A stretch of 64,000 bases of DNA, from the NCBI RefSeq assembly GCF_055900595.2, contig NZ_CM148325.1. One strand, written 5' to 3'. The position numbers and the translations under genes are program-made. The notes under the pieces were generated by a model. It was not told the DNA's origin. It ran no database searches and worked only from the letters and a program-made list of their open reading frames with translations. Positions 4,058 through 59,284 of this stretch are shown here, piece by piece; the first letter of the stretch is position 1; every line of letters starts with the position of its first letter.

Positions 4058-4113
4058 AAACGGCGGCAGAGCAGTCACGGAGTAAAACTGATACCGCTAA
4101 ACGTCACCAGAAA
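4058..4113 (-). ncRNA. dicF: DicF small RNA (ftsZ-targeting sRNA of Qin-type prophages)
   Basis: Minus-strand sequence ttttctggtgacgtttagcggtatcagttttactccgtgactgctctgccgccg followed by a T-run; near-identical to DicF as I recall it. Confidence 0.8.
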
Positions 4114-8627: not shown

Positions 8628-8855
8628 ATGCCAGCTTATGCTAATAAAGGCGGTAATTCGGGTATAGTGTTTTATGAGATTACTCCAGATGCTATCACAG
8701 TACAGTTTAAAGATGGATGGAAATACGTTTACGATTCTACAAAACCAGGGGCTTCAACGGTCTCTAGGATGAAAGAGTTAGCCCAGGCTGGGCATGGGCT
8801 AAATAGTTTTATTAGTAGTGTGGTTAAGAAAAATTTCTCACGTAAATACCTTTAA
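8628..8855 (+). CDS. KTSC-domain-like small protein
   Basis: 75 aa with VFYEITPDAITVQFKDGWKYVY motif; good RBS. Confidence 0.55.
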   Translation: MPAYANKGGNSGIVFYEITPDAITVQFKDGWKYVYDSTKPGASTVSRMKELAQAGHGLNSFISSVVKKNFSRKYL

Positions 8856-9669: not shown

Positions 9670-9823
9670 TTTTATATTGGCGAGGTGACGTGAGTTAAGT
9701 AGAATTGCTGCGGGTGCTTGAGGCTATCTGCCTCAGGCATGAACACCAACGGCAGATAGAGAAAAGCCCCAGTTAACATTACGCGTCCTGCAAGACGCTT
9801 AACATTAATCTGAGGCCAATTTC

Positions 9824-10036
9824 ATGCTAGACACATGTAGGTTAGCCTCTTACGTGCCGGAAGGCAAGGAGAAGCAGGCTATGAAGCAGCAAAAGGCGAT
9901 GTTAATCGCCCTGATCGTCATCTGTTTAACCGTCATAGTGACGGCACTGGTAACGAGGAAAGACCTCTGCGAGGTACGAATCCGAACCGGCCAGACGGAG
10001 GTCGCTGTCTTCACAGCTTACGAACCTGAGGAGTAA
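9824..10036 (+). CDS. mok: mok-like reading frame overlapping hok
   Basis: 70-aa frame that starts upstream of and reads through hok, as in hok/sok loci. Confidence 0.5.
   Translation: MLDTCRLASYVPEGKEKQAMKQQKAMLIALIVICLTVIVTALVTRKDLCEVRIRTGQTEVAVFTAYEPEE
9881..10036 (+). CDS. hok: Hok/Gef-family type I toxin
   Basis: 51 aa MKQQKAMLIALIVICLTVIVTALVTRKDLCEVRIRTGQTEVAVFTAYEPEE, Hok family (HokD/RelF-like as I recall it). Confidence 0.85.
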   Translation: MKQQKAMLIALIVICLTVIVTALVTRKDLCEVRIRTGQTEVAVFTAYEPEE

Positions 10037-10817: not shown

Positions 10818-11959
10818 GCATGAATATCGCACAAACACCATTTACTGATAAATCGTTTAATCCTCGTCGCCTTGAGGAGGCAAGAGAGGCAAAAGGGTTG
10901 ACGATGGCTGAACTTGCCAGAGTGCTCAATATTTCAAGACAAGCTATTTCGTCATTTGAGAAGGGGTTGAAGTCTCCCTCTGCTGATACACTTTCTGCAA
11001 TAGCCAAGGTGTTAGGATTTCCAGAACGATTTTTCTTAGCCTCCAGTGCTTCTCCATCTCTGGAGGGGGCGATTCATTTTAGAAGTCGTTCAACTGCGAC
11101 CAAAAAGGCTCGAGTTACAGGGAAAACACGTGGGCGTTGGGCGGCATTAATATTGGATGAATGTCTAAAATATGCTCAATTACCAGATGTGGTTCTGCCT
11201 GAATTCGATATTATTGATTTTGAGGTTCTGTCTCTATCTGATATTGAGGATATGTCCACCCAATTAAGGCGTTTTTGGGGGTTAGGTGATGGTCCAATAC
11301 TCAATTTAACTAGACTTGTTGAAAATAAAGGAATCGTGGTTTCTCATTTACCTTCTGGTGAGAAAGTTGATGCCTTTTCGTTCTGGCATAATGGGCGGCC
11401 TTTAATTATGTTAGATAGCTCGAAGACGGCTGTTCGCATGCGATTTAGTCTTGCTCATGAACTTGGCCATTTAATTATGCATAGGGCAGTGGAGGATGAC
11501 TACCTGAATGATAAAGAATTATTCGACCTGGTGGAGTTGCAGGCCGATTATTTTGCCTCCAGCTTTTTAATGCCAGCCACCACTTTCGGGCGTGAATTTT
11601 ATAGTCCAAATTTATCAGCGTTAGAACGATTAAAACTACGTTGGATTACATCTATCGGTAGTATTGCCATGAGGAGTCATAGCCTTAAGTTAATCAGCGA
11701 TAATCAGAAAAGCTATATATTTAAGCAATTAGCGCCATTCCATCGTAGGGAGCCGTTAGATGATGCAATCCCAAAAGAAGAGCCTGAGTTACTTAATAAG
11801 TTACTTTTACTTCTTGATAAGCATTCAATCATAAAGGTAACTGAGTTAACTGATATCTTTGCTCTTCCCTTAAATGAGTTATCTGCAATTACACGATTTA
11901 AAGAATCAGATATGATTCATTCTGACAATGTTATTTCATTTACCATAAAACAAAAATAA
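10814..11959 (+). CDS. HTH_XRE - ImmA/IrrE (COG2856, M78-like) zinc metallopeptidase fusion protein
   Basis: N-terminal XRE HTH (LTMAELARVLNISRQAISSFEKG); HEXXH motif HELGHLIMH at 11456-11470 followed by ELQADYFASSFLMP, typical of ImmA/IrrE. Confidence 0.8.
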   Translation: MSMNIAQTPFTDKSFNPRRLEEAREAKGLTMAELARVLNISRQAISSFEKGLKSPSADTLSAIAKVLGFPERFFLASSASPSLEGAIHFRSRSTATKKARVTGKTRGRWAALILDECLKYAQLPDVVLPEFDIIDFEVLSLSDIEDMSTQLRRFWGLGDGPILNLTRLVENKGIVVSHLPSGEKVDAFSFWHNGRPLIMLDSSKTAVRMRFSLAHELGHLIMHRAVEDDYLNDKELFDLVELQADYFASSFLMPATTFGREFYSPNLSALERLKLRWITSIGSIAMRSHSLKLISDNQKSYIFKQLAPFHRREPLDDAIPKEEPELLNKLLLLLDKHSIIKVTELTDIFALPLNELSAITRFKESDMIHSDNVISFTIKQK

Positions 11960-13395: not shown

Positions 13396-13412
13396 TTTTG
13401 TGGAGTAAGTTG

Positions 13413-13790
13413 ATGCGTGATATTCAGATGGTTCTTGAGCGTTGGGGGGCATGGGCGGCTAATAATCATGAAGATGTGACCTGGTCGTCCATTGCCGCTG
13501 GTTTTAAGGGATTAATTCCTTCAAAAGTAAGATCTCGTCCGCAATGCTGTGACGATGACGCGATGATCATTTGTGAATGTATGGCTCGCCTGAGAAAAAA
13601 CAACAGCGATTTACATGGTTTATTGGTGGACTATTATGTCGGCGGCATGACTTTTATGGCGCTTGCACGTAAGCATGGGCGATCTGATTGTTGGGTTGGC
13701 AGGATGCTCCAGAAAGCTGAGGGCGTAGTGGAGGGCATGCTGATGGTATTGGATCTCCGATTGGAGATGGATGCTGATTGTTCGAAATAA
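13413..13790 (+). CDS. Late antiterminator Q (phage 82/21 QuuD type)
   Basis: [31 protein letters not shown]...[16 protein letters not shown] matches the QuuD-like Q family. Confidence 0.85.
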
Positions 13791-13889
13791 TTAAAGGAAA
13801 AGTTGCTGTCTGATTGTCATTAGTCTAACATTTTAAATGTTGGAATCGCAACGTAGTTATTATCATATAACAGCTTGTTTCCTGATTTA

Positions 13890-13918
13890 GCCAGCCTCCC
13901 CAAAGGCTGGTTTTTTTC
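13890..13918 (+). terminator. Candidate tR' terminator downstream of Q
   Basis: agccagcctccccaaaggctggttttttt. Confidence 0.6.
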
Positions 13919-13945
13919 TAATAAGTATCATTTCGGGTAGGGATT

Positions 13946-14662: not shown

Positions 14663-15622
14663 ATGATAAAAAAACCTGTGATTGGAATCAGCGGTTGTTT
14701 GGCCGGTTCTGCTGTTCGTTTTGATGGTGGTCACAAAAGAGCTGACTTTTTAATGGACAAATTAGTGGAATGGGTAACATTCAGACCAGTATGTCCGGAA
14801 ATGGCTATAGGGCTGCCAGTTCCGCGTCCTGCTCTACGTCTTGTGCGCTCGAAGCAAGGAAATATACGGATGTGTTTCAGCCACGACCAGAATGAGGATG
14901 TGACAGAGAGAATGACAGAGTTTAGTCGTTCTTATATGCACAAATTAAAGGATGTATCGGGGTTTGTGGTTTGTGCTAAATCTCCCAGCTGTGGCATGGA
15001 GCGCGTGCGTGTCTATGATGAAAATGGTAATCGAGGTCGTAAAGATGGAGTGGGACTATTTACGAGCACTTTGATGGAAAAGTTTTCCTGGCTACCGGTT
15101 GAAGAGGATGGGCGATTACATGATCCAGTGCTTCGTGAGAATTTTGTTGAAAGAGTTTTTGCTTTGCATGAGCTCAATCACCTTTACAAGGAGAAATTAT
15201 CAAGAAGAGAGTTATTAGCTTTTCATAGTCGTTATAAGCTTCAGTTGTTGGCGCATAGTCAGGCAGGCTATAAAGATATGGGACCATTTGTGGCTGCAAT
15301 ACACGAGTGGGCGGACCTTGAATCATACTTTGAGGTGTATCGTGATAAGCTGATGGCGATTCTCAGAAAACCTGCATCACGTAAAAATCACACGAATGTG
15401 CTGATGCATATACAGGGGTATTTTAGTAATTACTTAAGTACACGCCAGCGTAAAGAGTTGACCGAGGTTATACTTAACTATCGCTTTGGCACATTGCCTC
15501 TTCTTGCGCCGTTGACTCTGCTGAAGCATTATCTGGGTGAGTATCCTAATGATTACTTGCTTACACAGAATTACTTCGATCCCTATCCGGAAGAACTGGC
15601 TCTAAGACTGATGGTGAATTAA
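14663..15622 (+). CDS. DUF523 (TudS-like) / DUF1722 two-domain protein (YbgA family)
   Basis: N-terminal GISGCLAG with further conserved Cys; C-terminal DUF1722-like half. Confidence 0.65.
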   Translation: MIKKPVIGISGCLAGSAVRFDGGHKRADFLMDKLVEWVTFRPVCPEMAIGLPVPRPALRLVRSKQGNIRMCFSHDQNEDVTERMTEFSRSYMHKLKDVSGFVVCAKSPSCGMERVRVYDENGNRGRKDGVGLFTSTLMEKFSWLPVEEDGRLHDPVLRENFVERVFALHELNHLYKEKLSRRELLAFHSRYKLQLLAHSQAGYKDMGPFVAAIHEWADLESYFEVYRDKLMAILRKPASRKNHTNVLMHIQGYFSNYLSTRQRKELTEVILNYRFGTLPLLAPLTLLKHYLGEYPNDYLLTQNYFDPYPEELALRLMVN

Positions 15623-16019: not shown

Positions 16020-16742
16020 GTGGATAATATGCCATACATATGTTCTGTCATTTTGGTGTTGAACTCGTTTGGTGTCCGAATTGGTAAAGAAGATATTTTG
16101 TTTAAAAAAGGAAGTGCTGTCCTCATCGAATACAATTTAAAAGATCTTTTTTCGTCAAATACAGATCATCTAATGATCGTAGATGTTGAGGAGAAAACAG
16201 TTAATGATTTCTTTAAAAACTACACACTCTCACCTTTTTCTGTAAGAAGGTTTTATCCGTCATACTTGATAGTAGAATGTGAAGATTTTTCATTGTTAAG
16301 GAACTTGGTTGCATGCTTGAATTGTGATAGCAAAACCGTGGATGTAGTTAGAAATCAAATATCACTTGCATGTCTTGCTGTCTTATCTTCAGAGAAAATA
16401 GTGCAAAGTTTTTTGTTCGGAAGTCTTAATAGCTTAGGTTGTAAAGTTAAGGCTATTATTCACTCGGATATCTCAGCGTCATGGAGACTTTGTGATATAT
16501 CTTCAAGATTATATATGAGCGAGAGTTTGTTAAAAAGAAAATTAAAAGACGAAGGATTATCGTTTAGTAAATTAATTCTTGAAGAACGAATGATGATGGC
16601 GCAAAGATTATTGATCTACAGTAACCATACTGTCGGCAAGGTGGCGGGAATATGCGGGTATGACAATGCATCATATTTTGTAAGTGTTTTTAGAGGATAT
16701 TTTGGTGTGCCTCCGCACCAATATTTATCAAGATTTTCTTAG
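16020..16742 (+). CDS. AraC-family transcriptional regulator (AppY/YbcM-like moron)
   Basis: C-terminal AraC HTH (ICGYDNASYFVSVFRGYFGVPPHQY); AT-rich flanks. Confidence 0.8.
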   Translation: MDNMPYICSVILVLNSFGVRIGKEDILFKKGSAVLIEYNLKDLFSSNTDHLMIVDVEEKTVNDFFKNYTLSPFSVRRFYPSYLIVECEDFSLLRNLVACLNCDSKTVDVVRNQISLACLAVLSSEKIVQSFLFGSLNSLGCKVKAIIHSDISASWRLCDISSRLYMSESLLKRKLKDEGLSFSKLILEERMMMAQRLLIYSNHTVGKVAGICGYDNASYFVSVFRGYFGVPPHQYLSRFS

Positions 16743-16932
16743 AAGATATGATGTGATGGCATTTTATAAAGTTATTTTTTGAAGTGTAAGATTATACGAT
16801 ATTTTTAGCTACGCCAGAATAATTGCTGGCGTTTTTCTTTTTGAATAGATGTTCGGGCCTTACGCTAATGTAACTTCTTTCCTTCTTCGAACCAAACCGT
16901 GTACACCATCCGTTATCTGCGGAGGTGAGGCT

Positions 16933-19053: not shown

Positions 19054-19416
19054 ATTAATATTAAATCGGATTATTTTTAGCGCTGAATGTGAAATTTAAA
19101 TAAAAAGGACTCTTCCATGAGTCAAAATCCTTGAAATCTTAAGGGTAAGATAAAAGGTCATTAGACAGAATGACACGTTTTATTAATAAATAAAGCTATT
19201 GTTTCATTCGTGTGTTTTTCTTTACAAAAGTAATCCTTGCTATGGTTGGTTAATCATGCGTTAATGGTGTTCTGGTTTGTTACAAAATTATCTGAAGCAG
19301 TCATTGTTATAATTTTATTATTTGTACCTCTTGAGATTTCCTTGTTGGTTTTTCTCTCTGATATTTTTTTTCGGACCATTCTGCCCAAGGGCTAACTTCT
19401 TCAAAAGGTAATAATG

Positions 19417-19629
19417 ATGTCTAACAAAATGACTGGTTTAGTGAAATGGTTTAACCCTGAAAAAGGTTTTGGTTTCATCACGCCGAAAGATGGTAGCAAA
19501 GATGTGTTTGTCCATTTCTCAGCTATTCAGAGCAACGATTTCAAAACGTTAACTGAGAATCAGGAAGTCGAATTTGGTATTGAGAACGGACCTAAAGGCC
19601 CCGCGGCTGTTCATGTTGTGGCACTTTGA
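19417..19629 (+). CDS. cspI: Cold shock protein (CspI-like)
   Basis: [38 protein letters not shown]... cold-shock domain. Confidence 0.9.
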
Positions 19630-19828
19630 GGTAGATAATATTACAAACCATATTCACTTTAGATGCCCGTGTTGCCATGGTTCTCAGTATAGAACATCAT
19701 CTTTTGATGTTTCTGACAGGAATCCTTTCGGGGCAAAATGTATCTTTTGTAAATCAATGATGATTACATTTGATAATATTTCACAATACTTAAATGTTAG
19801 CCGTCTATCGTTAGATTTAAGAAAGTGA
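19613..19828 (+). CDS. Possible small Cys4 zinc-ribbon protein
   Basis: [10 protein letters not shown]...CIFCKS motif; weak RBS; start overlaps the csp stop. Confidence 0.3.
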
Positions 19829-21527: not shown

Positions 21528-22067
21528 ATGGAGTTGCTTATGTCAAATGTGAGCGGGATCGGTGATGCTTATTACTGGAGTGTTTTTAAAATCGCCGAGG
21601 CCTTTGGGCTTCACCGGGACACAGTAAAAAAACGGCTCCTCGCGGCCAACACTCCTGTGGCTGCGACTGTCAGGGGGAACCCCGTTTACGCCCTGCAGCA
21701 TGTCGGGCCCGCCCTGTTTAGTGTGAAGCATGAGGCAGCAGACTCTGTTCATGATCCATCCCGTATGGAGCCGAAAGAGAGAAAGGACTGGTACCAGTCT
21801 GAAAATGAAAGGATCAAGCTGGAAAAGGAGCAGCGAAAACTCATCCCAGTTGATGAAGTAGTCATCGTCTATTCGTCCATGAGAAAGGCTGTCGTCCAGG
21901 TTCTGGAGACAATTCCGGATGTTCTTGAACGCGATTGCGCTCTGACTCCTCAGGCCGTCGGCGTTGTACAGCAGGCCATTGATGACCTGCGATACACTCT
22001 TCAGGAAAAATCCTACGAGGCTTGTGCTGCTGAATTAATTCCTGATGAGGAAGGAGAGAGTCTCTAG
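21528..22067 (+). CDS. Terminase small subunit (Nu1-like); start may be 21540
   Basis: Position and size; immediately upstream of the large terminase. Confidence 0.75.
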   Translation: MELLMSNVSGIGDAYYWSVFKIAEAFGLHRDTVKKRLLAANTPVAATVRGNPVYALQHVGPALFSVKHEAADSVHDPSRMEPKERKDWYQSENERIKLEKEQRKLIPVDEVVIVYSSMRKAVVQVLETIPDVLERDCALTPQAVGVVQQAIDDLRYTLQEKSYEACAAELIPDEEGESL

Positions 22068-27864: not shown

Positions 27865-27950
27865 ACGTCGCAGACAACAACTCTGATGGCCCGTAAGGGC
27901 TTTTTTTGTACCTGAAATCAGCCCCTGAACGGGGCTGTGCGGAGACAGTT

Positions 27951-29144: not shown

Positions 29145-29542
29145 ACCGACATACACAAATCCGCCAGGTCGTACTGGCACGCCTTCGGGAACAGTGTGGA
29201 GACAGCGCCACGTTTTTTGACGGGCTTCCGGCATTTATTGATGCGCAGGAACTGCCTGCCGTGGCGGTGTGGCTGAGTGATGCTCAGTACACCGGAAAAA
29301 TGACGGATGAAGATGACTGGCAGGCTGTTCTGCATATTGCCGTCTTCATCCGGGCACAGGCACCGGATTCAGAGCTGGATATGTGGATGGAGAGCACCAT
29401 TTTCCCGGCCCTGAATGATGTACCGGCACTTTCCGGACTCATCGACACCCTGAACCCACTCGGTTTTAACTATCAACGTGATAATGAGATGGCCACCTGG
29501 GCGATGGCGGAAATCACGTACCAGATCACGTACACGAATTAA
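29129..29542 (+). CDS. Tail terminator protein (gpU-like)
   Basis: ATFFDGLPAFIDAQELPAVAVWLSDAQYTG...DSELDMWMES matches lambda U. Confidence 0.9.
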   Translation: MADPMNRHTQIRQVVLARLREQCGDSATFFDGLPAFIDAQELPAVAVWLSDAQYTGKMTDEDDWQAVLHIAVFIRAQAPDSELDMWMESTIFPALNDVPALSGLIDTLNPLGFNYQRDNEMATWAMAEITYQITYTN

Positions 29543-29552
29543 GGAGGTGGTA

Positions 29553-30296
29553 ATGACCACACCAAATCCACTGGCAAAGACGAAAGGTGCGGGGACGACG
29601 TTCTGGATGTATACCGGCAACGGCGATGCGTTTGCGAACCCTTTGTCGGACACTGACTGGCTGCGTCTTGCGATGGTGAAGGATCTGCAACCTGGCGAAA
29701 TGACCGCTGATGCAGAAGATGACACTTATCTCGATGATGAAGATGCAGACTGGAAAACGACAACCCAGGGGCAGAAATCCGTTGGTGATACTTCGGCGAC
29801 GCTGGCCTGGCGTCCGGGTGACAGCGGGCAGAAAAAACTGGTTCAGTTGTTCGACTCCGGTGAAGTCTGCGCGTTTCGTATCAAATATCCCAACGGCACT
29901 GTTGATGTTTTCCGTGGCTGGCTGAGCTCACTGGGTAAAACCATTGCCTCAAAAGACGTGATGACCCGCACTGTGAAAATCAGCGGTGTGGGGCGTCCGT
30001 ATCTGGCAGAGGAAGGCACTGAAACCGTGAGCGTTACCGGGCTGACAGTATCACCGGCGTCTGCCAGTGTAAAAGTGGGAGCAACCACCACGCTGACCTT
30101 TACAGTAAAACCTGACGGAGCCAGTGACAAAGCGATCAGTGTGCATTCGTCAGATCCACAGACTGCCACGGTTACCCTGAACGGACTTGTGGCCACGGTA
30201 AAAGGCGTGAAGCAGGGCAGTGTCAGCATTGTGGGCATGACCGCTGACGGGAATTTTGTGGCTGTGACTGCGGTGACTGTCAGCGCAGCAGGTTAA
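29553..30296 (+). CDS. Major tail protein (gpV-like) with C-terminal Ig-like domain
   Basis: MTTPNPLAKTKGAGTTFWMYTG...LDDEDADWKTT matches lambda V. Confidence 0.9.
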   Translation: MTTPNPLAKTKGAGTTFWMYTGNGDAFANPLSDTDWLRLAMVKDLQPGEMTADAEDDTYLDDEDADWKTTTQGQKSVGDTSATLAWRPGDSGQKKLVQLFDSGEVCAFRIKYPNGTVDVFRGWLSSLGKTIASKDVMTRTVKISGVGRPYLAEEGTETVSVTGLTVSPASASVKVGATTTLTFTVKPDGASDKAISVHSSDPQTATVTLNGLVATVKGVKQGSVSIVGMTADGNFVAVTAVTVSAAG

Positions 30297-30316
30297 CAGG
30301 ACGATACTCATCATTT

Positions 30317-30340
30317 GCCCCGGTTATGCGGGGCTTTTTT
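30317..30340 (+). terminator. Intrinsic terminator-like hairpin between V and G
   Basis: gccccggttatgcggggc followed by tttttt. Confidence 0.55.
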
Positions 30341-30356
30341 GCAGGTGGAGAACATG

Positions 30357-30743
30357 ATGTTTCTGAAACAGGACACGTTTAATTATGAAAAACAGTCCGT
30401 GGTGCTCAGTGAGCTGTCCGGGCTGCAGAGAATTGAATATCTGACGTTTGTTCAGCAGCGAACGGCAAAGTTTGATGCCGTGGAGGGAGAACTGCCGGAG
30501 GCTGAACGACAGATTGCTTTTCTGCGGATGGGGATGGATATCAATGCCTGGCTGGTTTCCCGCTCACTGTGGAATGCGGATCAGTCTAAGGATGTAGAGA
30601 CGCTTTGCGCATCCGTTATTACAACATGGTCGTATGATGCCCTGGGTGCGGGGGCGGAGATGGTTCTGTCGCTGAGCGGTATGGGGGCCATTGATAATGC
30701 CGTGGATGATGAGCATGAGGCGCTGACGCCGGAAAAGTCCTGA
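30357..30743 (+). CDS. Tail assembly chaperone G
   Basis: MFLKQDTFNYEKQSVVLSELSGLQRIEYL matches lambda G. Confidence 0.85.
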   Translation: MFLKQDTFNYEKQSVVLSELSGLQRIEYLTFVQQRTAKFDAVEGELPEAERQIAFLRMGMDINAWLVSRSLWNADQSKDVETLCASVITTWSYDALGAGAEMVLSLSGMGAIDNAVDDEHEALTPEKS

Positions 30744-31081
30744 CGCGGGAAATGCAGTTTGTCATGCGGCTTGCCCGGGAGTTCCGGCGGGCAGACTGGC
30801 GGCGGATGCTGTCGGAAATGTCGGCCACTGAGCTTGGTGAGTGGGGCGATTATTTCCGGATGCAGAGCTTCAGTGATGTGTGGATGGATGCGCAGTTTGC
30901 CTCGCTGAAGGCATTGATCGTGAGAATGGTGTCCGGCAGCAGTGATGCTGCGGTGGCTGATTTCAGCCTTTTACCGGAAGAGAACGGGATACCGGAGCGA
31001 ACGGACGAAGAACTGATGCATCTTGGGGAAGGTATTTCCGGAGGTGTGCGTTATGGACCAGATAGCCAACCTGGTCATTGA
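30677..31081 (+). CDS. Tail assembly protein T segment (expected as G-T fusion via -1 frameshift)
   Basis: -1 frame is open from 30677 across the G stop into the T-like ORF. Confidence 0.7.
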
Positions 31082-34000
31082 TTTGGGGATTGATGCGGCA
31101 GAGTTTAAAAATGAAATTCCCCGTATCAAAAACCTTCTGAATGGTGCAGCCAGCGATGCAGAACGGTCTTCTGCCCGTATGCAGCGTTTTATGGAGCGTC
31201 AGACTCAGGCCGCCCGGCAGACAACGCAGGCAGCTTCTTCGGCTGCAACAGCCGCATCCGTCCATGCGCAGACGGTGGAGAAGAACGCACAGGCTCATGA
31301 ACGCATGGCCCGCGAGGTGGAGAAAACCCGCCAGCGCATGGAGGCACTGAGCCAGAAAATGCGCGAGGAACAGGCGCAGGCCATCGCTCTGGCGGAGGCT
31401 CAGGATAAAGCGGCTGCTGCGTTTTATCGTCAGATTGACAGTGTGAAACAGGCCAGTGCGGGGCTGCAGGAATTACAGCGTATTCAGCAGCAGATCCGAC
31501 AGGCCAGAAACAGTGGCGGGATTGGTCAGCAGGATTATCTGGCGCTGATTTCTGAGGTTACGGCGAAAACCCGTGTTCTTACGCAGGCTGAGGCAGAGGC
31601 TACCCGACAGAAAGTGGCGTTTATCCGTCAGCTTAAAGAGCAGGCAACCCGCCAGAATCTTTCTTCTTCTGAGTTGCTTCGTGCCAGGGCTGCCCAGCTG
31701 GGGGTAAGCAGTGCTGCAGAAGTGTATATCCGCAAAATGGAGCGGGCAGGAAAAGCCACGCATTCGCTGGGTCTGAAAAGTGCAGCGGCCCGCCAGGAGA
31801 TAGGCGTTCTGATAGGTGAACTGGCCCGCGGCAATTTAGGGGCGCTGAGGGGATCCGGGATAACGCTGGCTAACCGTGCCGGATGGATAGACACACTGAT
31901 GTCACCGAAAGGCATGATGCTGGGCGGGGTTATTGGCGGTATTACCGCGGCCGTCTATGGTCTGGGTAAAGCCTGGTATGACGGTCAGAAGGAGGGGGAA
32001 GAATTTAACCGCCAGCTGTCGCTGACGGGGCATTATGCCGGAGTCACTGCCGGGCAGCTGTGGACGCTCAGTCGTGCTATTTCCGGGAATGGTATCACGC
32101 AACATGCTGCAGCCGGTGCGCTGGCTCAGGTGGTGGGGAGTGGTGCATTTCGTGGAAACGATATCGGTATGGTGGCGAGAGCTGCCGCACAGATGGAGCG
32201 ATCGGTTGGCCAGTCGGTCAGCGATACCATAAATCAGTTTAAGCGGCTGAAGGATGATCCTGTAAATGCCGCGAAGTCTCTGGACAATGAGCTGCATTTT
32301 CTTACTGCCACTCAGCTTGAGCAGATACGCGTCCTTGGAGAGCAGGGGCGGTCCAGTGATGCGGCACGGATAGCCATGTCTGCACTGGCAGAGGAAACCG
32401 GTCGGCGTACTGCGGATATTGATAATAACCTCAATGCGCTGGGCAGTACGCTGCAAACTTTGTCTGACTGGTGGAAGCAGTTCTGGGATGCGGCCATGAA
32501 TATTGGTCGTGAAGATTCGCTGGATGCGCAGATTGCCACTTTGCAGGAGAAAGTGTCGCGGGCGAAAAGACTCCCCTGGACGGCATCATCTTCTCAGGTT
32601 GAATACGATCAGCAGCGTCTTAACGATCTTCAGGAGAAAAAACGCCAGAAGGATTTGCAGGATGCAAAAGAGCAGGCAGAGCGGAATTATCAGGAGCAAC
32701 AGAAACGCCGTAATGCTGAAAATGCTGCACTGAACCGGATGAATGAAACGGAAGCTGCACGACATCAGCGTGAAATTGCGCGTATTAATGCCATGCAGTA
32801 CGCCGATCAGGCTGTCAGGGATGCGGCGATACAACGTGAAAATGAACGTTACGAGAAAGCCCTGGCATCCGGTAAGAAAAAAACACGCGAAACCCGTAAT
32901 GATGAGGCCACCCGGTTATTGCTGCAGTACAGTCAGCAACAGGCACAGGTGGAAGGACAGATTGCTGCTGCCAGACAGTCAGCAGGCATTGCCACGGAAA
33001 GGATGACAGAAGCGCATAAACAGCTCCTGGCTCTGCAGCAGCGCATCAGCGACCTGGACGGGAAAAAACTGACGGCAGATGAAAAGAGTGTGCTGGCCCG
33101 TAAAGATGAACTGATTCAGGCACTGACGCTGCTGGATGTAAAACAGCAGGAGCTTCAGAAACAGACGGCACTCAACGAGCTGAAGAAAAAACAATTCAGC
33201 TGACCAGTCAACTGGCTGAAGAAGAGCGCGCTCAGCGTCAGCAACATGACCTGGATATCGCCACGGTGGGTATGGGTGATCAGCAGCGACAGCGATATCA
33301 GGTACAACTGAGTCTTCGCCAGAAATACCAGCAACAGCTGGAGCAGTTGAGGCGGGATAGTGAGCAGAAAGGGACATATAACACGGATGACTACAGAAAG
33401 GCCGAGCAGGCGCTGACGGAGAGCCTGAACCGACAACTGAATGAGAATCGCCGTTACTGGCAACAGCTTGAAGTTGTGCAGGGTAACTGGAAAAACGGAG
33501 TCCTGCGTGCATTTCAGGATTTTACCGTGGATGCAGATAATACGGCAGAAACAGCAGAACAGGTGTTCTCGTCAGCCTTCAGCAACATGGGAAATGGCCT
33601 GGCAACTTTTGTCACTACCGGCAAACTCAATTTCAAATCCTTCACCTCTTCTGTGCTGTCAGATATGGCGAAAATCCTGGCGCAGGCAACCATGATGAAA
33701 TCGATAAAAGGGATTGGCAGTGTACTGGGATTTGATCTCAGCAGCCTTTCCCTGAATGCCAATGGGGGGATTTATCAGTCTGCTGATTTGAGTCGTTACA
33801 GTGGCACGGTGGTTAACCGTCCGACGTTTTTTGCTTTTGCAAAAGGCGCGGGTGTGATGGGGGAAGCGGGACCTGAAGCCATTCTGCCATTGCGTCGTGG
33901 TGCTGACGGTAAGCTGGGGGTTGTGGCGGATATTGGGGGTTCAGGTATGGCGATGTTTTCCCCGCAGTACAACATCGAGATCAATAACGATGGCACGAAC

Positions 34001-34117
34001 GGGCAGATAGGTCCGGCTGCCCTGAAGGCGGTTTATGACCTCGGGAAAAAAGCGGCAGCGGACTTTATGCAACAGCAGGCCCGTGATGGTGGTCGGTTAA
34101 GTGGAGCATATCGGTAA
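31053..34117 (+). CDS. Tail tape measure protein (gpH-like), interrupted by an apparent frameshift near 33186-33203
   Basis: Two consecutive ORFs (frame 0 to 33203, -1 frame open from 33110) both with tape-measure character; GGAGGTG RBS before ATG 31053. Confidence 0.8.
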
Positions 34118-36447: not shown

Positions 36448-36507
36448 TGAAAAACGTTTTATGTGAAACCGCCTCCGGGCGGTTTTGTCGTTTATGGAGC
36501 GTTAGGA

Positions 36508-39500
36508 ATGGGTAAAGGCAGCAGTAAGGGGCATACTCCGCGCGAAGCGAAGGACAACCTGAAGTCCACGCAGTTGCTGAGTGTGATCGATGCCATCAGC
36601 GAAGGGCCGGTTGAAGGTCCGGTAGATGGATTAAAAAGCGTGCTGCTGAACAGTACGCCAGTGCTGGACATTGAGGGGAATACCAACATCTCCGGCGTCA
36701 CGGTGGTGTTCCGGGCCGGTGAGCAGGAGCAAACACCGCCGGAGGGATTTGAATCCTCCGGCTCCGAGACGGTGCTGGGTACGGAAGTGAAATACGACAC
36801 GCCGATCACCCGGACCATCACGTCGGCAAACATTGACCGACTGCGTTTTACCTTCGGCGTGCAGGCACTGGTGGAAACCACCTCAAAGGGGGACAGGAAT
36901 CCGTCGGAAGTCCGCCTGCTGGTTCAGATACAACGTAACGGTGGCTGGGTGACGGAAAAAGACATCACCATTAAAGGCAAAACCACCTCACAGTATCTGG
37001 CCTCGGTGGTGGTGGGTAACCTGCCGCCGCGCCCGTTCAATATCCGGATGCGCAGGATGACGCCGGACAGCACCACAGACCAACTGCAGAACAAAACGCT
37101 CTGGTCGTCATACACCGAAATCATCGATGTGAAACAGTGCTACCCGAACACGGCACTGGTTGGCGTGCAGGTGGACTCGGAGCAGTTCGGCAGCCAGCAG
37201 GTGAGCCGTAATTATCATCTTCGCGGGCGCATTCTGCAGGTGCCGTCGAACTATAACCCGCAGACGCGGCAATACAGCGGTATCTGGGACGGAACGTTAA
37301 AACCGGCATACAGCAACAACATGGCCTGGTGTCTGTGGGATATGCTGACCCACCCGCGCTACGGCATGGGGAAACGTCTTGGTGCGGCAGATGTGGATAA
37401 ATGGGCGCTGTATGTCATCGGCCAGAATTGCGACCAGTCGGTGCCGGACGGCTTTGGCGGTACGGAGCCGCGCATCACCTGTAACGCTTACCTGACCACA
37501 CAACGTAAGGCGTGGGATGTGCTCAGTGATTTCTGCTCGGCGATGCGCTGTATGCCGGTATGGAGCGGGCAGACGCTGACGTTCGTGCAGGACCGACCGT
37601 CGGATAAGGTGTGGACCTATAACCGCAGTAATGTGGTGATGCCGGATGATGGCGCGCCGTTCCGCTACAGCTTCAGCGCCCTGAAAGACCGCCATAATGC
37701 CGTTGAGGTGAACTGGATTGACCCGGATAACGGCTGGGAGACGGCAACAGAGCTTGTGGAGGACTCGCAGGCCATTGCCCGTTACGGTCGTAACGTCACG
37801 AAGATGGATGCCTTTGGCTGTACCAGCCGGGGGCAGGCACACCGCGCCGGGCTGTGGCTGATTAAAACGGAGCTGCTGGAAACGCAGACGGTGGACTTCA
37901 GCGTGGGTGCCGAAGGGCTTCGCCATGTGCCGGGCGATGTTATTGAAATCTGCGATGATGACTATGCCGGTATCAGCATCGGTGGTCGCGTGCTGGCGGT
38001 GAACAGCCAGACCCGGACGCTGACGCTCGACCGTGAAATCACGCTGCCATCCTCCGGCACCACGCTGATAAGCCTGGTTGACGGTGAGGGTAATCCGGTC
38101 AGCGTGGAGGTCCAGTCCGTCACCGACGGCGTGAAGGTGAAAGTGAGCCGTGTTCCTGACGGCGTTGCTGAATACAGCGTGTGGGGGCTGAAGTTGCCGA
38201 CGTTGCGCCAGCGCCTGTTCCGCTGCGTGAGTATCCGTGAGAACGACGACGGCACGTATGCCATCACTGCCGTGCAGCATGTACCGGAGAAAGAGGCCAT
38301 CGTGGATAACGGGGCGCACTTTGACGGTGACCAGAGCGGCACGGTGAATGGTGTCACGCCGCCAGCAGTGCAGCACCTGACCGCAGAAGTCACTGCAGAC
38401 AGCGGGGAATATCAGGTGCTGGCGCGATGGGACACACCGAAGGTGGTGAAGGGCGTGAGCTTCCTGCTTCGCCTGACCGTGGCAGCGGATGACGGCAGTG
38501 AGCGGCTGGTCAGCACGGCCCGGACGACGGAAACCACTTACCGCTTCACACAACTGGCTCTGGGGAACTACAGGCTGACAGTCCGGGCAGTAAATGCGTG
38601 GGGGCAGCAGGGCGATCCGGCGTCGGTATCGTTCCGGATTGCCGCACCGGCAGCGCCGTCGCGGATTGAGCTGACGCCGGGCTATTTTCAGATAACCGCC
38701 ACGCCGCATCTTGCGGTTTATGATCCGACGGTACAGTTTGAGGTCTGGTTCTCGGAAAAACGGATTGCTGATATCAGGCAGGTTGAAACCAGCGCGCGTT
38801 ATCTTGGTACGGCGCTGTACTGGATAGCCGCCAGTATCAATATCAAACCGGGTCGTGATTATTACTTTTATATCCGCAGTGTGAACACCGTCGGCAAATC
38901 GGCATTCGTGGAGGCTGTTGGTCGGGCGAGCGATGATGCGGAAGGTTACCTGGATTTTTTCAAAGGCCAGATAACCGAATCCCATCTCGGCAAGGAGCTG
39001 CTGGAAAAAGTCGAGCTGACGGAGGATAACGCCAGCAGACTGGAGGAGTTTTCGAAAGAGTGGAAGGACGCCAGTGATAAGTGGAATGCCATGTGGGGCG
39101 TCAAAATTGAGCAGACCAAAGACGGCAAACATTATGTCGCGGGTATTGGCCTCAGTATGGAGGATACAGAGGAAGGCAAACTGAGTCAGTTTCTGGTTGC
39201 CGCCAATCGTATCGCGTTTATTGACCCGGCAAACGGGAATGAAACGCCGATGTTTGTGGCGCAGGGCAACCAGATATTCATGAACGACGTGTTCCTGAAA
39301 CGCCTGACGGCCCCCACCATTACCAGCGGCGGTAATCCTCCGGCATTTTCCCTGACACCGGATGGGCGGCTGACGGCGAAAAATGCCGATATCAGCGGTA
39401 ACGTGAATGCGAACTCCGGGACGCTCAACAACGTCACGATTAACGAGAACTGTCGGGTTCTGGGAAAACTGTCCGCGAACCAGATTGAAGGCGATCTCGT

Positions 39501-39903
39501 TAAAACAGTGGGCAAAGCTTTCCCCCGGGACTCCCGTGCACCGGAGCGGTGGCCATCAGGGACCATTACCGTCAGGGTTTATGACGATCAGCCGTTTGAC
39601 CGGCAGATTGTTATTCCGGCGGTGGCATTCAGCGGCGCTAAACATGAGAGAGAGCATACTGATATTTACTCCTCATGCCGTCTGATAGTGCGGAAAAACG
39701 GTGCTGAAATTTATAACCGTACCGCGCTGGATAATACGCTGATTTACAGTGGCGTTATTGATATGCCTGCCGGTCACGGTCACATGACGCTGGAGTTTTC
39801 GGTGTCAGCATGGCTGGTAAATGACTGGTATCCCACAGCAAGTATCAGCGATTTGCTGGTTGTGGTGATGAAGAAAGCCACCGCAGGCATCAGTATCAGC
39901 TGA
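36508..39903 (+). CDS. Host specificity protein J (central tail fibre)
   Basis: Near-identical to lambda J over most of its length as I recall it; C-terminal about 150 aa diverge. Confidence 0.9.
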
Positions 39904-39922
39904 ATTTTATAACCCATATACG

Positions 39923-39946
39923 GGCGCCAGAAATGGCGCCTTTTTT
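39923..39946 (+). terminator. Rho-independent terminator after J
   Basis: gggcgccagaaatggcgcctttttt. Confidence 0.7.
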
Positions 39947-40623: not shown

Positions 40624-41330
40624 TGCACAGAAAACCCCCAGCTAGGCTGGGGGTTCCGGAAAGCTTTCAGCTTTGAGCCAGTTATTAAAACCCCTTTTGA
40701 TTTGTTAAAACACCTTGCGGTCTGGCAACTGCAAGTGTCAAACAAGAAATCAAAAGGGGGTCCCAATGGGGGACGAAAAGAGCTTAGCGCACACCCGCTG
40801 GAACTGTAAATATCACATAGTTTTTGCGCCGAAATACCGAAGACTGGCGTTTTACGGAGAGAAGCGTAGGGCGATAGGCAGTATTTTGAGAAAGCTGTGT
40901 GAGTGGAAAAGCGTACGGATTCTGGAAGCAGAGTGCTGCGCAGATCATATCCATATGCTTGTGGAAATCCCACCCAAAATGAGCGTATCCGGCTTTATGG
41001 GATATCTGAAAGGGAAAAGCAGTCTGATGCTTTACGAGCAGTTTGGGGATTTGAAATTCAAATACAGAAACAGGGAGTTCTGGTGCCGAGGGTACTATGT
41101 CGATACGGTGGGTAAGAACACGGCGAAGATACAGGACTACATAAAGCACCAGCTTGAAGAGGATAAAATGGGGGAGCAGTTATCGATTCCATATCCGGGC
41201 AGCCCGTTTACGGGCCGTAAGTAACGAAGTTGAATGCAAATGTCAGATCGTATGCGCCTGTTAGGGCGCGGCTGGTAACAGAGCCTTACAGGCGCATTTG
41301 AAAAACCTCCGGCTATGCCGGAGGATATTT
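40621..41330 (+). mobile_element. IS200-family insertion sequence (about 710 bp, boundaries approximate)
   Basis: Left-end hairpin cccccagctaggctggggg, second stem-loop over the RBS, tnpA, right-end hairpin cctccggctatgccggagg. Confidence 0.8.
40766..41224 (+). CDS. tnpA: IS200 transposase TnpA (HUH Y1 transposase)
   Basis: MGDEKSLAHTRWNCKYHIVFAPKYRR...HIHMLVEIPPKMSVS matches IS200 TnpA. Confidence 0.9.
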   Translation: MGDEKSLAHTRWNCKYHIVFAPKYRRLAFYGEKRRAIGSILRKLCEWKSVRILEAECCADHIHMLVEIPPKMSVSGFMGYLKGKSSLMLYEQFGDLKFKYRNREFWCRGYYVDTVGKNTAKIQDYIKHQLEEDKMGEQLSIPYPGSPFTGRK

Positions 41331-56532: not shown

Positions 56533-56577
56533 GCTCCGTTTAACATTCATTGAGAAAACTGATGCTACTGTGTCAAC

Positions 56578-56677
56578 GATCCGTTATCAGTGCAGGAAAA
56601 TGCCTGTTAGCGTAAAAGCAAAACACAAATCTATCCATGCAAGCATTCACCGCCGGTTTACTGGCGGTTTTTTTTCG
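56578..56677 (+). ncRNA. mgrR: Candidate MgrR small RNA (boundaries approximate)
   Basis: Intergenic position between dgcZ and mgtS; ends at intrinsic terminator ccgccggtttactggcggtttttttt. Confidence 0.45.
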
Positions 56678-56750
56678 CCGTCATAAAAATCAGGCCCCTT
56701 GTACACAGTTGTAACAAGGGGCCGGTTAGGTGAGGGATTATCTCCGTTCA

Positions 56751-56846
56751 TTAGTCATCCCATTTGTGGCTGAAATACGCGGCCAGAAAACCAGAAAATA
56801 AAATTATTCCCAGTACGGCCATAAAAACATTCATATTACCCAGCAT
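56751..56846 (-). CDS. mgtS: Small membrane protein MgtS (YneM), 31 aa
   Basis: Minus-strand MLGNMNVFMAVLGIILFSGFLAAYFSHKWDD; not in the ORF track because of size. Confidence 0.8.
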   Translation of the reverse strand: MLGNMNVFMAVLGIILFSGFLAAYFSHKWDD

Positions 56847-59254: not shown

Positions 59255-59284
59255 AAGGCCCCGAGATGTCGGGGCCAGAATAAA

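Follow-up and report, generated by a model that had tools for sequence, protein, structure and literature searches.

A conserved terminator-type hairpin between the tail tube gene V and the chaperone gene G of an mEp460-type tail module and its possible roles in the late operon

The V–G junction and its hairpin

The 64,000-nucleotide stretch of DNA analysed here, referred to as the window (NCBI RefSeq assembly GCF_055900595.2, contig NZ_CM148325.1), contains the tail genes V, G, T and H on its plus strand (Table 1). These gene identities, given in the original prediction from the sequence alone, proved correct by Pfam domains, and the coordinates of V, which encodes a tail tube protein of the lambda type, match those of the coding sequence mEp460_010 of phage mEp460. 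The frameshift in the tape-measure gene H is due to an indel at about 33180–33185, where the window has six A residues and mEp460 has seven, and splits the gene into two open reading frames (31023–33203 and 33266–34117). Despite the frameshift, the DNA of H shares 98.3% identity with its intact counterpart in mEp460; the indel would reflect a sequencing error in the homopolymer or else a prophage with defective tails. Further upstream, cargo is found between the antiterminator gene Q and the holin gene, comprising the genes of a 2-thiouracil desulfurase/DUF1722 protein (14663–15622) and of an AraC-type regulator (16020–16742), the latter followed by the terminator-like site at 16811.

Table 1. 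Positions of genes and sequence elements of the late operon in the window.
Feature	Position	Strand	Basis
Q, Q-type late antiterminator, Q21 family	13398–13790	+	PF06530, E=3e-50
Promoter-like TTGCTG-17 nt-TAACAT ahead of the tR′-like site	13803–13831	+	read by eye; not returned by the scan
tR′-like terminator, about 100 nt after Q, T7	13889–13919	+	strict scan; −11.1 kcal/mol
Further strong terminator-like site, immediately ahead of the holin gene (16849)	16811–16841	+	strict scan
Hairpin and T7 after the protease/scaffold/capsid fusion gene (stop 27864)	27888–27907	+	pattern scan
V, major tail tube protein with C-terminal Ig-like Big_2 domain	29553–30296	+	PF16461, E=5e-67; PF02368, E=2e-12
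Hairpin 5′ arm, GCCCCG	30317–30322	+	sequence, pattern scan, folding
Hairpin loop, GTTATG	30323–30328	+	sequence, comparison with relatives, folding
Hairpin 3′ arm, CGGGGC	30329–30334	+	sequence, pattern scan, folding
T6 tract directly 3′ of the stem (U-tract in the RNA)	30335–30340	+	sequence
Shine-Dalgarno sequence of G, GGTGGAG	30345–30351	+	sequence
G, tail assembly chaperone (start ATG 30354, stop 30743)	30354–30743	+	PF06894, E=6e-40; mEp460_011
T segment of the G-T chaperone	30752–31081	+	PF06223, E=4e-15
H, tape-measure gene, frameshifted	31053–34117	+	tape-measure domains
Strong terminator-like site after the J-like tail tip gene (36463–39903)	39922–39946	+	scan, folding

The stop codon of V (TAA, 30294–30296) is followed, 20 nt downstream and on the same strand, by the inverted repeat GCCCCG-GTTATG-CGGGGC and the sequence TTTTTT. 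Hairpin and T-run (30317–30340) end 13 nt ahead of the start codon of G, within a V–G spacer of 57 nt. The 6-bp GC stem with six T residues, which the original prediction had placed between V and G right after the V stop codon, is thus present with a gap of 20 nt, and was recovered by an independent pattern scan as a hairpin of six pairs, all of them G-C, with a 6-nt loop. Folding of the isolated hairpin yields −12.5 kcal/mol. Compared with most relatives, in which the loop reads GTTATC, a C-to-G change at 30328 opens a seventh G-C pair.

The element displays the anatomy of an intrinsic terminator. Its G+C-rich stem and its loop lie within the usual ranges of about 5–14 bp and 3–8 nt, respectively, the U-tract is situated immediately 3′ of the stem, and the hairpin is co-oriented and located downstream of the stop codon, with room to fold behind a terminating ribosome. 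Its position after V is at the same time the one expected of an mRNA stabiliser, in which a stable hairpin closes off the upstream, more highly expressed cistron at its 3′ end. In the 76-nt context around the hairpin, folding is no better than that of shuffled sequences (z = −0.4), which indicates that the signal consists of the local hairpin and the T-run and does not extend to a larger structure. A terminator on the reverse strand was rejected; since the minus strand lacks a T-run after the hairpin, the site is unidirectional. No Rfam covariance model matches the V–G site. The five matches in the window, all above the gathering score, lie elsewhere: DicF (4061–4112, minus strand), sok antitoxin RNA (9712–9886, plus strand), the cspA thermoregulator 5′ UTR (19259–19675, plus strand), which lies in the prophage between its lysis genes and its terminase genes, STnc490 (40633–40756, plus strand) just after a lom-like gene, and STnc560 (56544–56757, plus strand).

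Terminator-like sites were defined strictly, by a perfect stem of 6 bp or longer that includes five or more G-C pairs, a loop of 3–8 nt and at least six T residues in the next 8 nt. About 11 distinct sites of this kind are found in the 64-kb window, compared with a mean of 0.25 and a maximum of 3 in 100 dinucleotide shuffles. The particular pattern GCCCCG-N6-CGGGGC is expected 0.09 times. Both as a member of its class and individually, the V–G site is no chance match. A second occurrence of the pattern at 59258 was rejected as an unrelated hairpin after a host gene, having a different loop and no T-run. Moreover, a search of the window with a covariance model of the element gave no further copy at E < 0.05, and a dispersed (REP-like) repeat is excluded.

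Terminator-like sites are enriched between positions 22000 and 40000 (35 versus 15.1 ± 4.2 in shuffled sequences). In the same region sigma-70-like promoters are depleted, with 3 found versus 11.0 ± 3.4 expected from shuffles, which is consistent with one long operon. Behind the hairpin that follows the capsid fusion gene, a further one (CAGCCCC-TGAAC-GGGGCTG, 27919–27937) immediately precedes the ribosome-binding site of the gene for the cement protein. A hairpin of other sequence (CCGGCACGGCGTGCCGG) occupies the equivalent position in Gifsy-2, suggesting a conserved 5′-end structure for the segment downstream of the capsid gene.

Distribution and conservation of the stem

The region 29400–31200 is 97–99.8% identical to 17 sequenced phages of the mEp460/cdtI/Ayreon/Tritos/PhiR55_1 group. 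A "rho-independent terminator" annotated in mEp460 (JQ182728.1, 8751–8774) corresponds base for base to positions 30317–30340 of the window, and the terminator annotated in Ayreon (MF807953.1, 8742–8782) is equivalent to the V–G site; the hairpin after the capsid gene (27888–27907) is likewise annotated as a terminator in both phages. The V–G terminator hairpin is therefore already known, being annotated in near-identical phages and of a textbook kind. Element and position are the same as in mEp460 and Ayreon, with 97–98% identity over the surrounding 1.8 kb. The window differs in the base change at 30328 with the resulting open seventh pair, and the public terminator annotations are predictions. 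A literature search found no experimental test of a V–G terminator for any lambdoid phage; the "terminator" of a paper on TP901-1 turned out to be the tail terminator protein and not a transcription terminator.

The V–G junction is present in about a third of the complete E. coli genomes (1834 of 5426). In O157 prophages, the homologous V–G junctions show 97% identity. No V–G hairpin was found in lambda, in phi80, where the gap between both genes is 10 nt, or in an Stx2a phage, which shows that the basic design works without the element. It is specific to the tail module of the cdtI/mEp460/Gifsy-2 type. Two loci with rearrangements were encountered. In E. coli PA11 (NZ_CP145942.1; locus L088, 2617–3925), what looked like a mosaic boundary at the hairpin is an insertion of IS1203 (IS3 family) 3 nt upstream of it and no hairpin variant; the insertion is flanked by a TTT target duplication, places V and G about 1.3 kb apart and has a terminal sequence (TGAACCGCCCCGGG) similar to the hairpin arm GCCCCGG. 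In the other locus (L052, 1140–1190), a rearrangement joint lies inside the hairpin loop, so that only the 3′ arm, the T-run and G are left; the sequence upstream of the joint is unrelated, and G matches over residues 1–90 only.

Relatives were collected by scanning viral contigs twice with the G protein as query, which yielded loci with G identities from 97% down to 56%. Because MAFFT placed the arms of lineages with 5-nt loops out of register, a hand-anchored parse was used instead. A covariance-model search at E <= 10 drew in terminators that are unrelated and did not recover the lineages lacking a U-tract, and the formal pair count was restricted to 11 distinct E. coli-type sequences. The commonest form of the element is GCCCCGG-TTAT-CCGGGGC, a 7-bp stem closed by a tetraloop (−15.0 kcal/mol) and followed by T5–T6. 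In groups with 66–67% G identity it reads ACCCCGG-TATG-CCGGGGT, followed by T6–T7; here the basal G-C pair has been replaced by A-U through changes on both sides, and the flanks have diverged. A group with 64% G identity carries a TTCG loop, and Gifsy-2-type phages possess a weak stem (GTCCT/GGGGC, −4.0 kcal/mol) together with T7. Three groups with 57–58% G identity display the perfect GCCCCG/CGGGGC stem without a U-tract (ATCTTCTG, CCTCTTAC and ATCTTCAA), with loops CCTGT, CCTGC and TCTGT and stem energies of −10.5 to −11.6 kcal/mol. These three lineages look closely related and may go back to a single loss event; since the loss, the stem has been held while loop and flanks changed.

In the hand-anchored parse, all six core pairs are standard in 14 of 14 lineage representatives, and a U-tract of T5–T7 is present in 11 of them and lost in 3. 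The loops vary freely (TTAT, TATG, TTCG, ACAT, CCTGT, CCTGC, TCTGT). Among the 11 distinct E. coli-type sequences, 97.4% of the cells are paired, as opposed to at most 70% with the 3′ partner slid. Covariation is limited to one pair changed on both sides, a score reached by 51 of 500 shuffles and thus not significant; taken alone, covariation proves nothing. Stronger evidence for the stem is provided by relative conservation. Over 12 lineages, mean pairwise identity amounts to 0.90 for the 12 stem-arm bases, but to 0.42 for the 12 nt upstream of the stem, 0.56 for the 8-nt tail after the stem and 0.52 for the third codon positions of G. As the first and second codon positions of G reach 0.84, the constraint on the stem is at least as high as that on amino-acid-determining positions. 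By this sequence comparison, the stem is shown to be under purifying selection across related tail modules. In conclusion, the V–G element is a conserved stem-loop of the Rho-independent-terminator type.

Late transcription and possible roles of the hairpin

The Q protein encoded in the window shows distant similarity to the Q21 structures PDB 6P18/6JNX (E=5e-10 over 83 residues). According to the structural study of Q21 (10.1101/651190), the protein builds a nozzle at the RNA exit channel and sterically prevents terminator hairpins from forming, processively over tens of kilobases, a block described as effectively absolute. The same working mode as for Q21 has been reported for Q-lambda (PMC9388147). 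By analogy, Q should make late transcription resistant to the V–G hairpin, with the efficiency of read-through being assumed. The promoter-like sequence and the terminator following Q (Table 1) represent the classic pR′-tR′ arrangement. The V–G site (−12.5 kcal/mol, T-tract score 4.7) matches the tR′-like site (−11.1 kcal/mol, 5.5) in strength and is thus not an intrinsically "partial" terminator. Moreover, every lysis and structural gene is located downstream of both the 13889 and the 16811 terminator-like sites. Since two comparably strong sites precede the structural genes, late transcription must be terminator-resistant before it reaches V–G, and the polymerases arriving there should be the resistant ones.

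The best explanation, held with a confidence that stops somewhat short of even, is that the hairpin forms a stop for ordinary polymerase, is read through under Q and then acts in 3′-end protection, raising V over the chaperones and the tape measure. Because the V–G site is as strong as the tR′-like terminator, ordinary RNA polymerase would be expected to terminate efficiently at the hairpin. Transcription that does not start at the Q-controlled late promoter, for instance stray transcription in a lysogen, would stop without reaching G, T, H and the genes of the distal tail. In lytic growth, read-through would be achieved by polymerase carrying the Q21-family protein, as at the two earlier terminators. 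Once the RNA has left the polymerase, the hairpin would fold within the long late mRNA and form a barrier to 3′-to-5′ exonucleases, and cleavage might plausibly take place in the U-rich single strand behind the hairpin. RNA fragments with V at their end would then persist longer than the G-T-H segment. A lambda-type tail requires many more copies of V than of G, T or H. Accumulation of V, of which hundreds of copies are required, would be kept above that of chaperones and tape measure by RNA stability more than by partial termination.

A stabilising role is supported by the finding that hairpins follow the two highest-copy genes, those for capsid and tail tube. It would also fit the retention of the stem without a U-tract in three lineages, where a hairpin-only role in the RNA may be at work, since something other than termination must keep the stem there. 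However, the U-tract retained in 11 of 14 lineages would be superfluous for a pure stabiliser and suggests that termination itself is selected, be it because some leakiness persists under Q or because lysogens are thereby insulated from transcription that does not depend on Q. With somewhat less confidence, it is conceivable that the hairpin is kept mainly for its role in the finished RNA, in place of a stop to transcription, and that segments of different stability set the stoichiometry of the structural proteins post-transcriptionally. In a late operon read by Q-loaded, hairpin-blind polymerase, the hairpins behind the genes of capsid and tail tube would then be 3′-end protectors dividing one 26-kb transcript; the lineages with a perfect stem and no U-tract would represent the purest form of this.

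The original prediction held that the hairpin could act as a partial terminator setting the ratio of V to G, T and H. As far as the element is concerned this stands, since the site is canonical, non-random and conserved, and is called a rho-independent terminator by the annotators of both mEp460 and Ayreon. That it is leaky, stopping a fixed fraction of late lytic transcription so that G, T, H and the distal tail genes remain below V, would make sense of the stoichiometry and agrees with the canonical anatomy, with the U-tract in 11 of 14 lineages, with the position right after a high-copy gene, which has its twin after the capsid gene, and with the same layout predicted in SPP1 (PMC6316719). 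However, a ratio-setting partial role in lytic growth is doubtful: the site is strong, an antiterminator of the Q21 family, for which a near-absolute processive block is reported (10.1101/651190), is present, two comparably strong sites have already been passed by the arriving polymerases, and the stem has been kept while the U-tract was dropped in three lineages. A leaky terminator appears rather unlikely. A role in setting the V:G/T/H ratio is plausible as such, although it would more likely be exerted through RNA stability.

With still less probability, the element is an insulator for the lysogen only, which stops Q-independent stray or read-in transcription of the tail genes and has no quantitative role in lytic growth. 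The strength of the site towards unmodified polymerase (folding, T-tract score), the wide occurrence of the element in resident prophages (1834 of 5426 complete E. coli genomes) and the several such sites punctuating the late operon would be in line with this. However, promoters are already depleted between 22000 and 40000 (3 versus 11.0), which leaves little to insulate against, and neither the specific placement of hairpins after the capsid and tail tube genes nor the retention of the stem without a U-tract would be explained. It is very improbable that the hairpin uncouples translation, i.e. keeps ribosomes that finish V from re-initiating on G and thereby holds chaperone synthesis low. Its position between the V stop codon (30296) and the Shine-Dalgarno sequence of G (30345), which stays unsequestered, and the very short V–G gaps of phages lacking the hairpin would suit such a function, but the conserved U-tract is left unaccounted for.

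A hairpin with a U-tract is also the usual Hfq-binding module, and the 3′ region of V could give rise to an Hfq-binding small RNA that ends with the element. Terminator hairpins of lambdoid phages do yield Hfq-bound small RNAs, as exemplified by LPR1/PreS of lambda (10.1101/2024.10.31.621285) and by StxS (PMC7547250), the latter study being accompanied by a Term-seq and dRNA-seq deposit for EHEC Sakai (GEO GSE143631). Such an origin is nevertheless highly improbable at this site, where no Rfam family matches, where the 20-nt spacer upstream is unconserved between lineages (0.42 identity) and thus offers no conserved seed, and where no promoter-like site is found upstream in V. The mEp460-associated sRNA-17 of E. 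coli K1 was considered as the V–G element and rejected, as it is located in an intergenic region of more than 1 kb.

As a standard, annotated predicted terminator in a very common prophage tail module of E. coli, the hairpin is of small practical importance. It provides, however, a natural test case for the role of strong intrinsic terminators in operons read by Q-loaded polymerase. According to the older view, the ratios of lambda late-gene products are set by translation initiation alone. If a stabilising role holds true, a setting of capsid and tail ratios by RNA stability would refine this view and would be relevant to the engineering of phage tail or tailocin operons.

Comparison with known systems

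The window shares with lambda the homologous V-G-T-H order and a Q-dependent late operon. In contrast, the V–G gap of lambda comprises 15 nt and has no hairpin. A strong hairpin with a UUCG tetraloop (GGCCC-TTCG-GGGCC; NC_001416, 7160–7202, corresponding to 2161–2203 of locus L003) lies in lambda within the 41-nt gap behind E, the gene of the major capsid protein; the tail after the hairpin is rich in T but interrupted (TGTTTCTCTG). Lacking a clean T-run, this hairpin fits the RNA-stabiliser mechanism.

The mechanism of the original prediction is that of two other systems. In T7, the T-phi terminator sits after the capsid gene 10, and in filamentous phages a terminator follows the coat gene VIII. 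Both resemble the V–G site in that a terminator placed after the most abundant structural gene leaves less transcript downstream; however, their late genes are not transcribed by a terminator-resistant, Q-loaded host polymerase. Intercistronic stabiliser hairpins are known from malEFG (REP), the Rhodobacter puf operon and pap. In these, as proposed for V–G, the end of the upstream cistron is shielded from 3′ exonucleases, which gives rise to unequal expression from one transcript, and in the sib/tI retroregulation of lambda the fate of a terminator hairpin depends on antitermination of the polymerase. None of these elements lies at a V–G junction, and the stabilising role proposed for the window is suggested by its context and by the lineages that kept the stem while lacking a U-tract.

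The same layout is found in the Bacillus phage SPP1, in which terminators are predicted after the capsid gene 13 (8775–8815) and after the tail tube gene 17.1* (11255–11304), the latter preceding the chaperone gene 17.5 (PMC6316719). As in the window, one hairpin with a T-run follows the major capsid gene and another separates the tail tube gene from the frameshifting chaperone gene. SPP1 is an unrelated phage with an unrelated host and sequence, it is not known to involve an antiterminator of the Q type, and its sites are predictions only. The predicted SPP1 terminators behind the genes of capsid and tail tube would fit the RNA-stabiliser mechanism.
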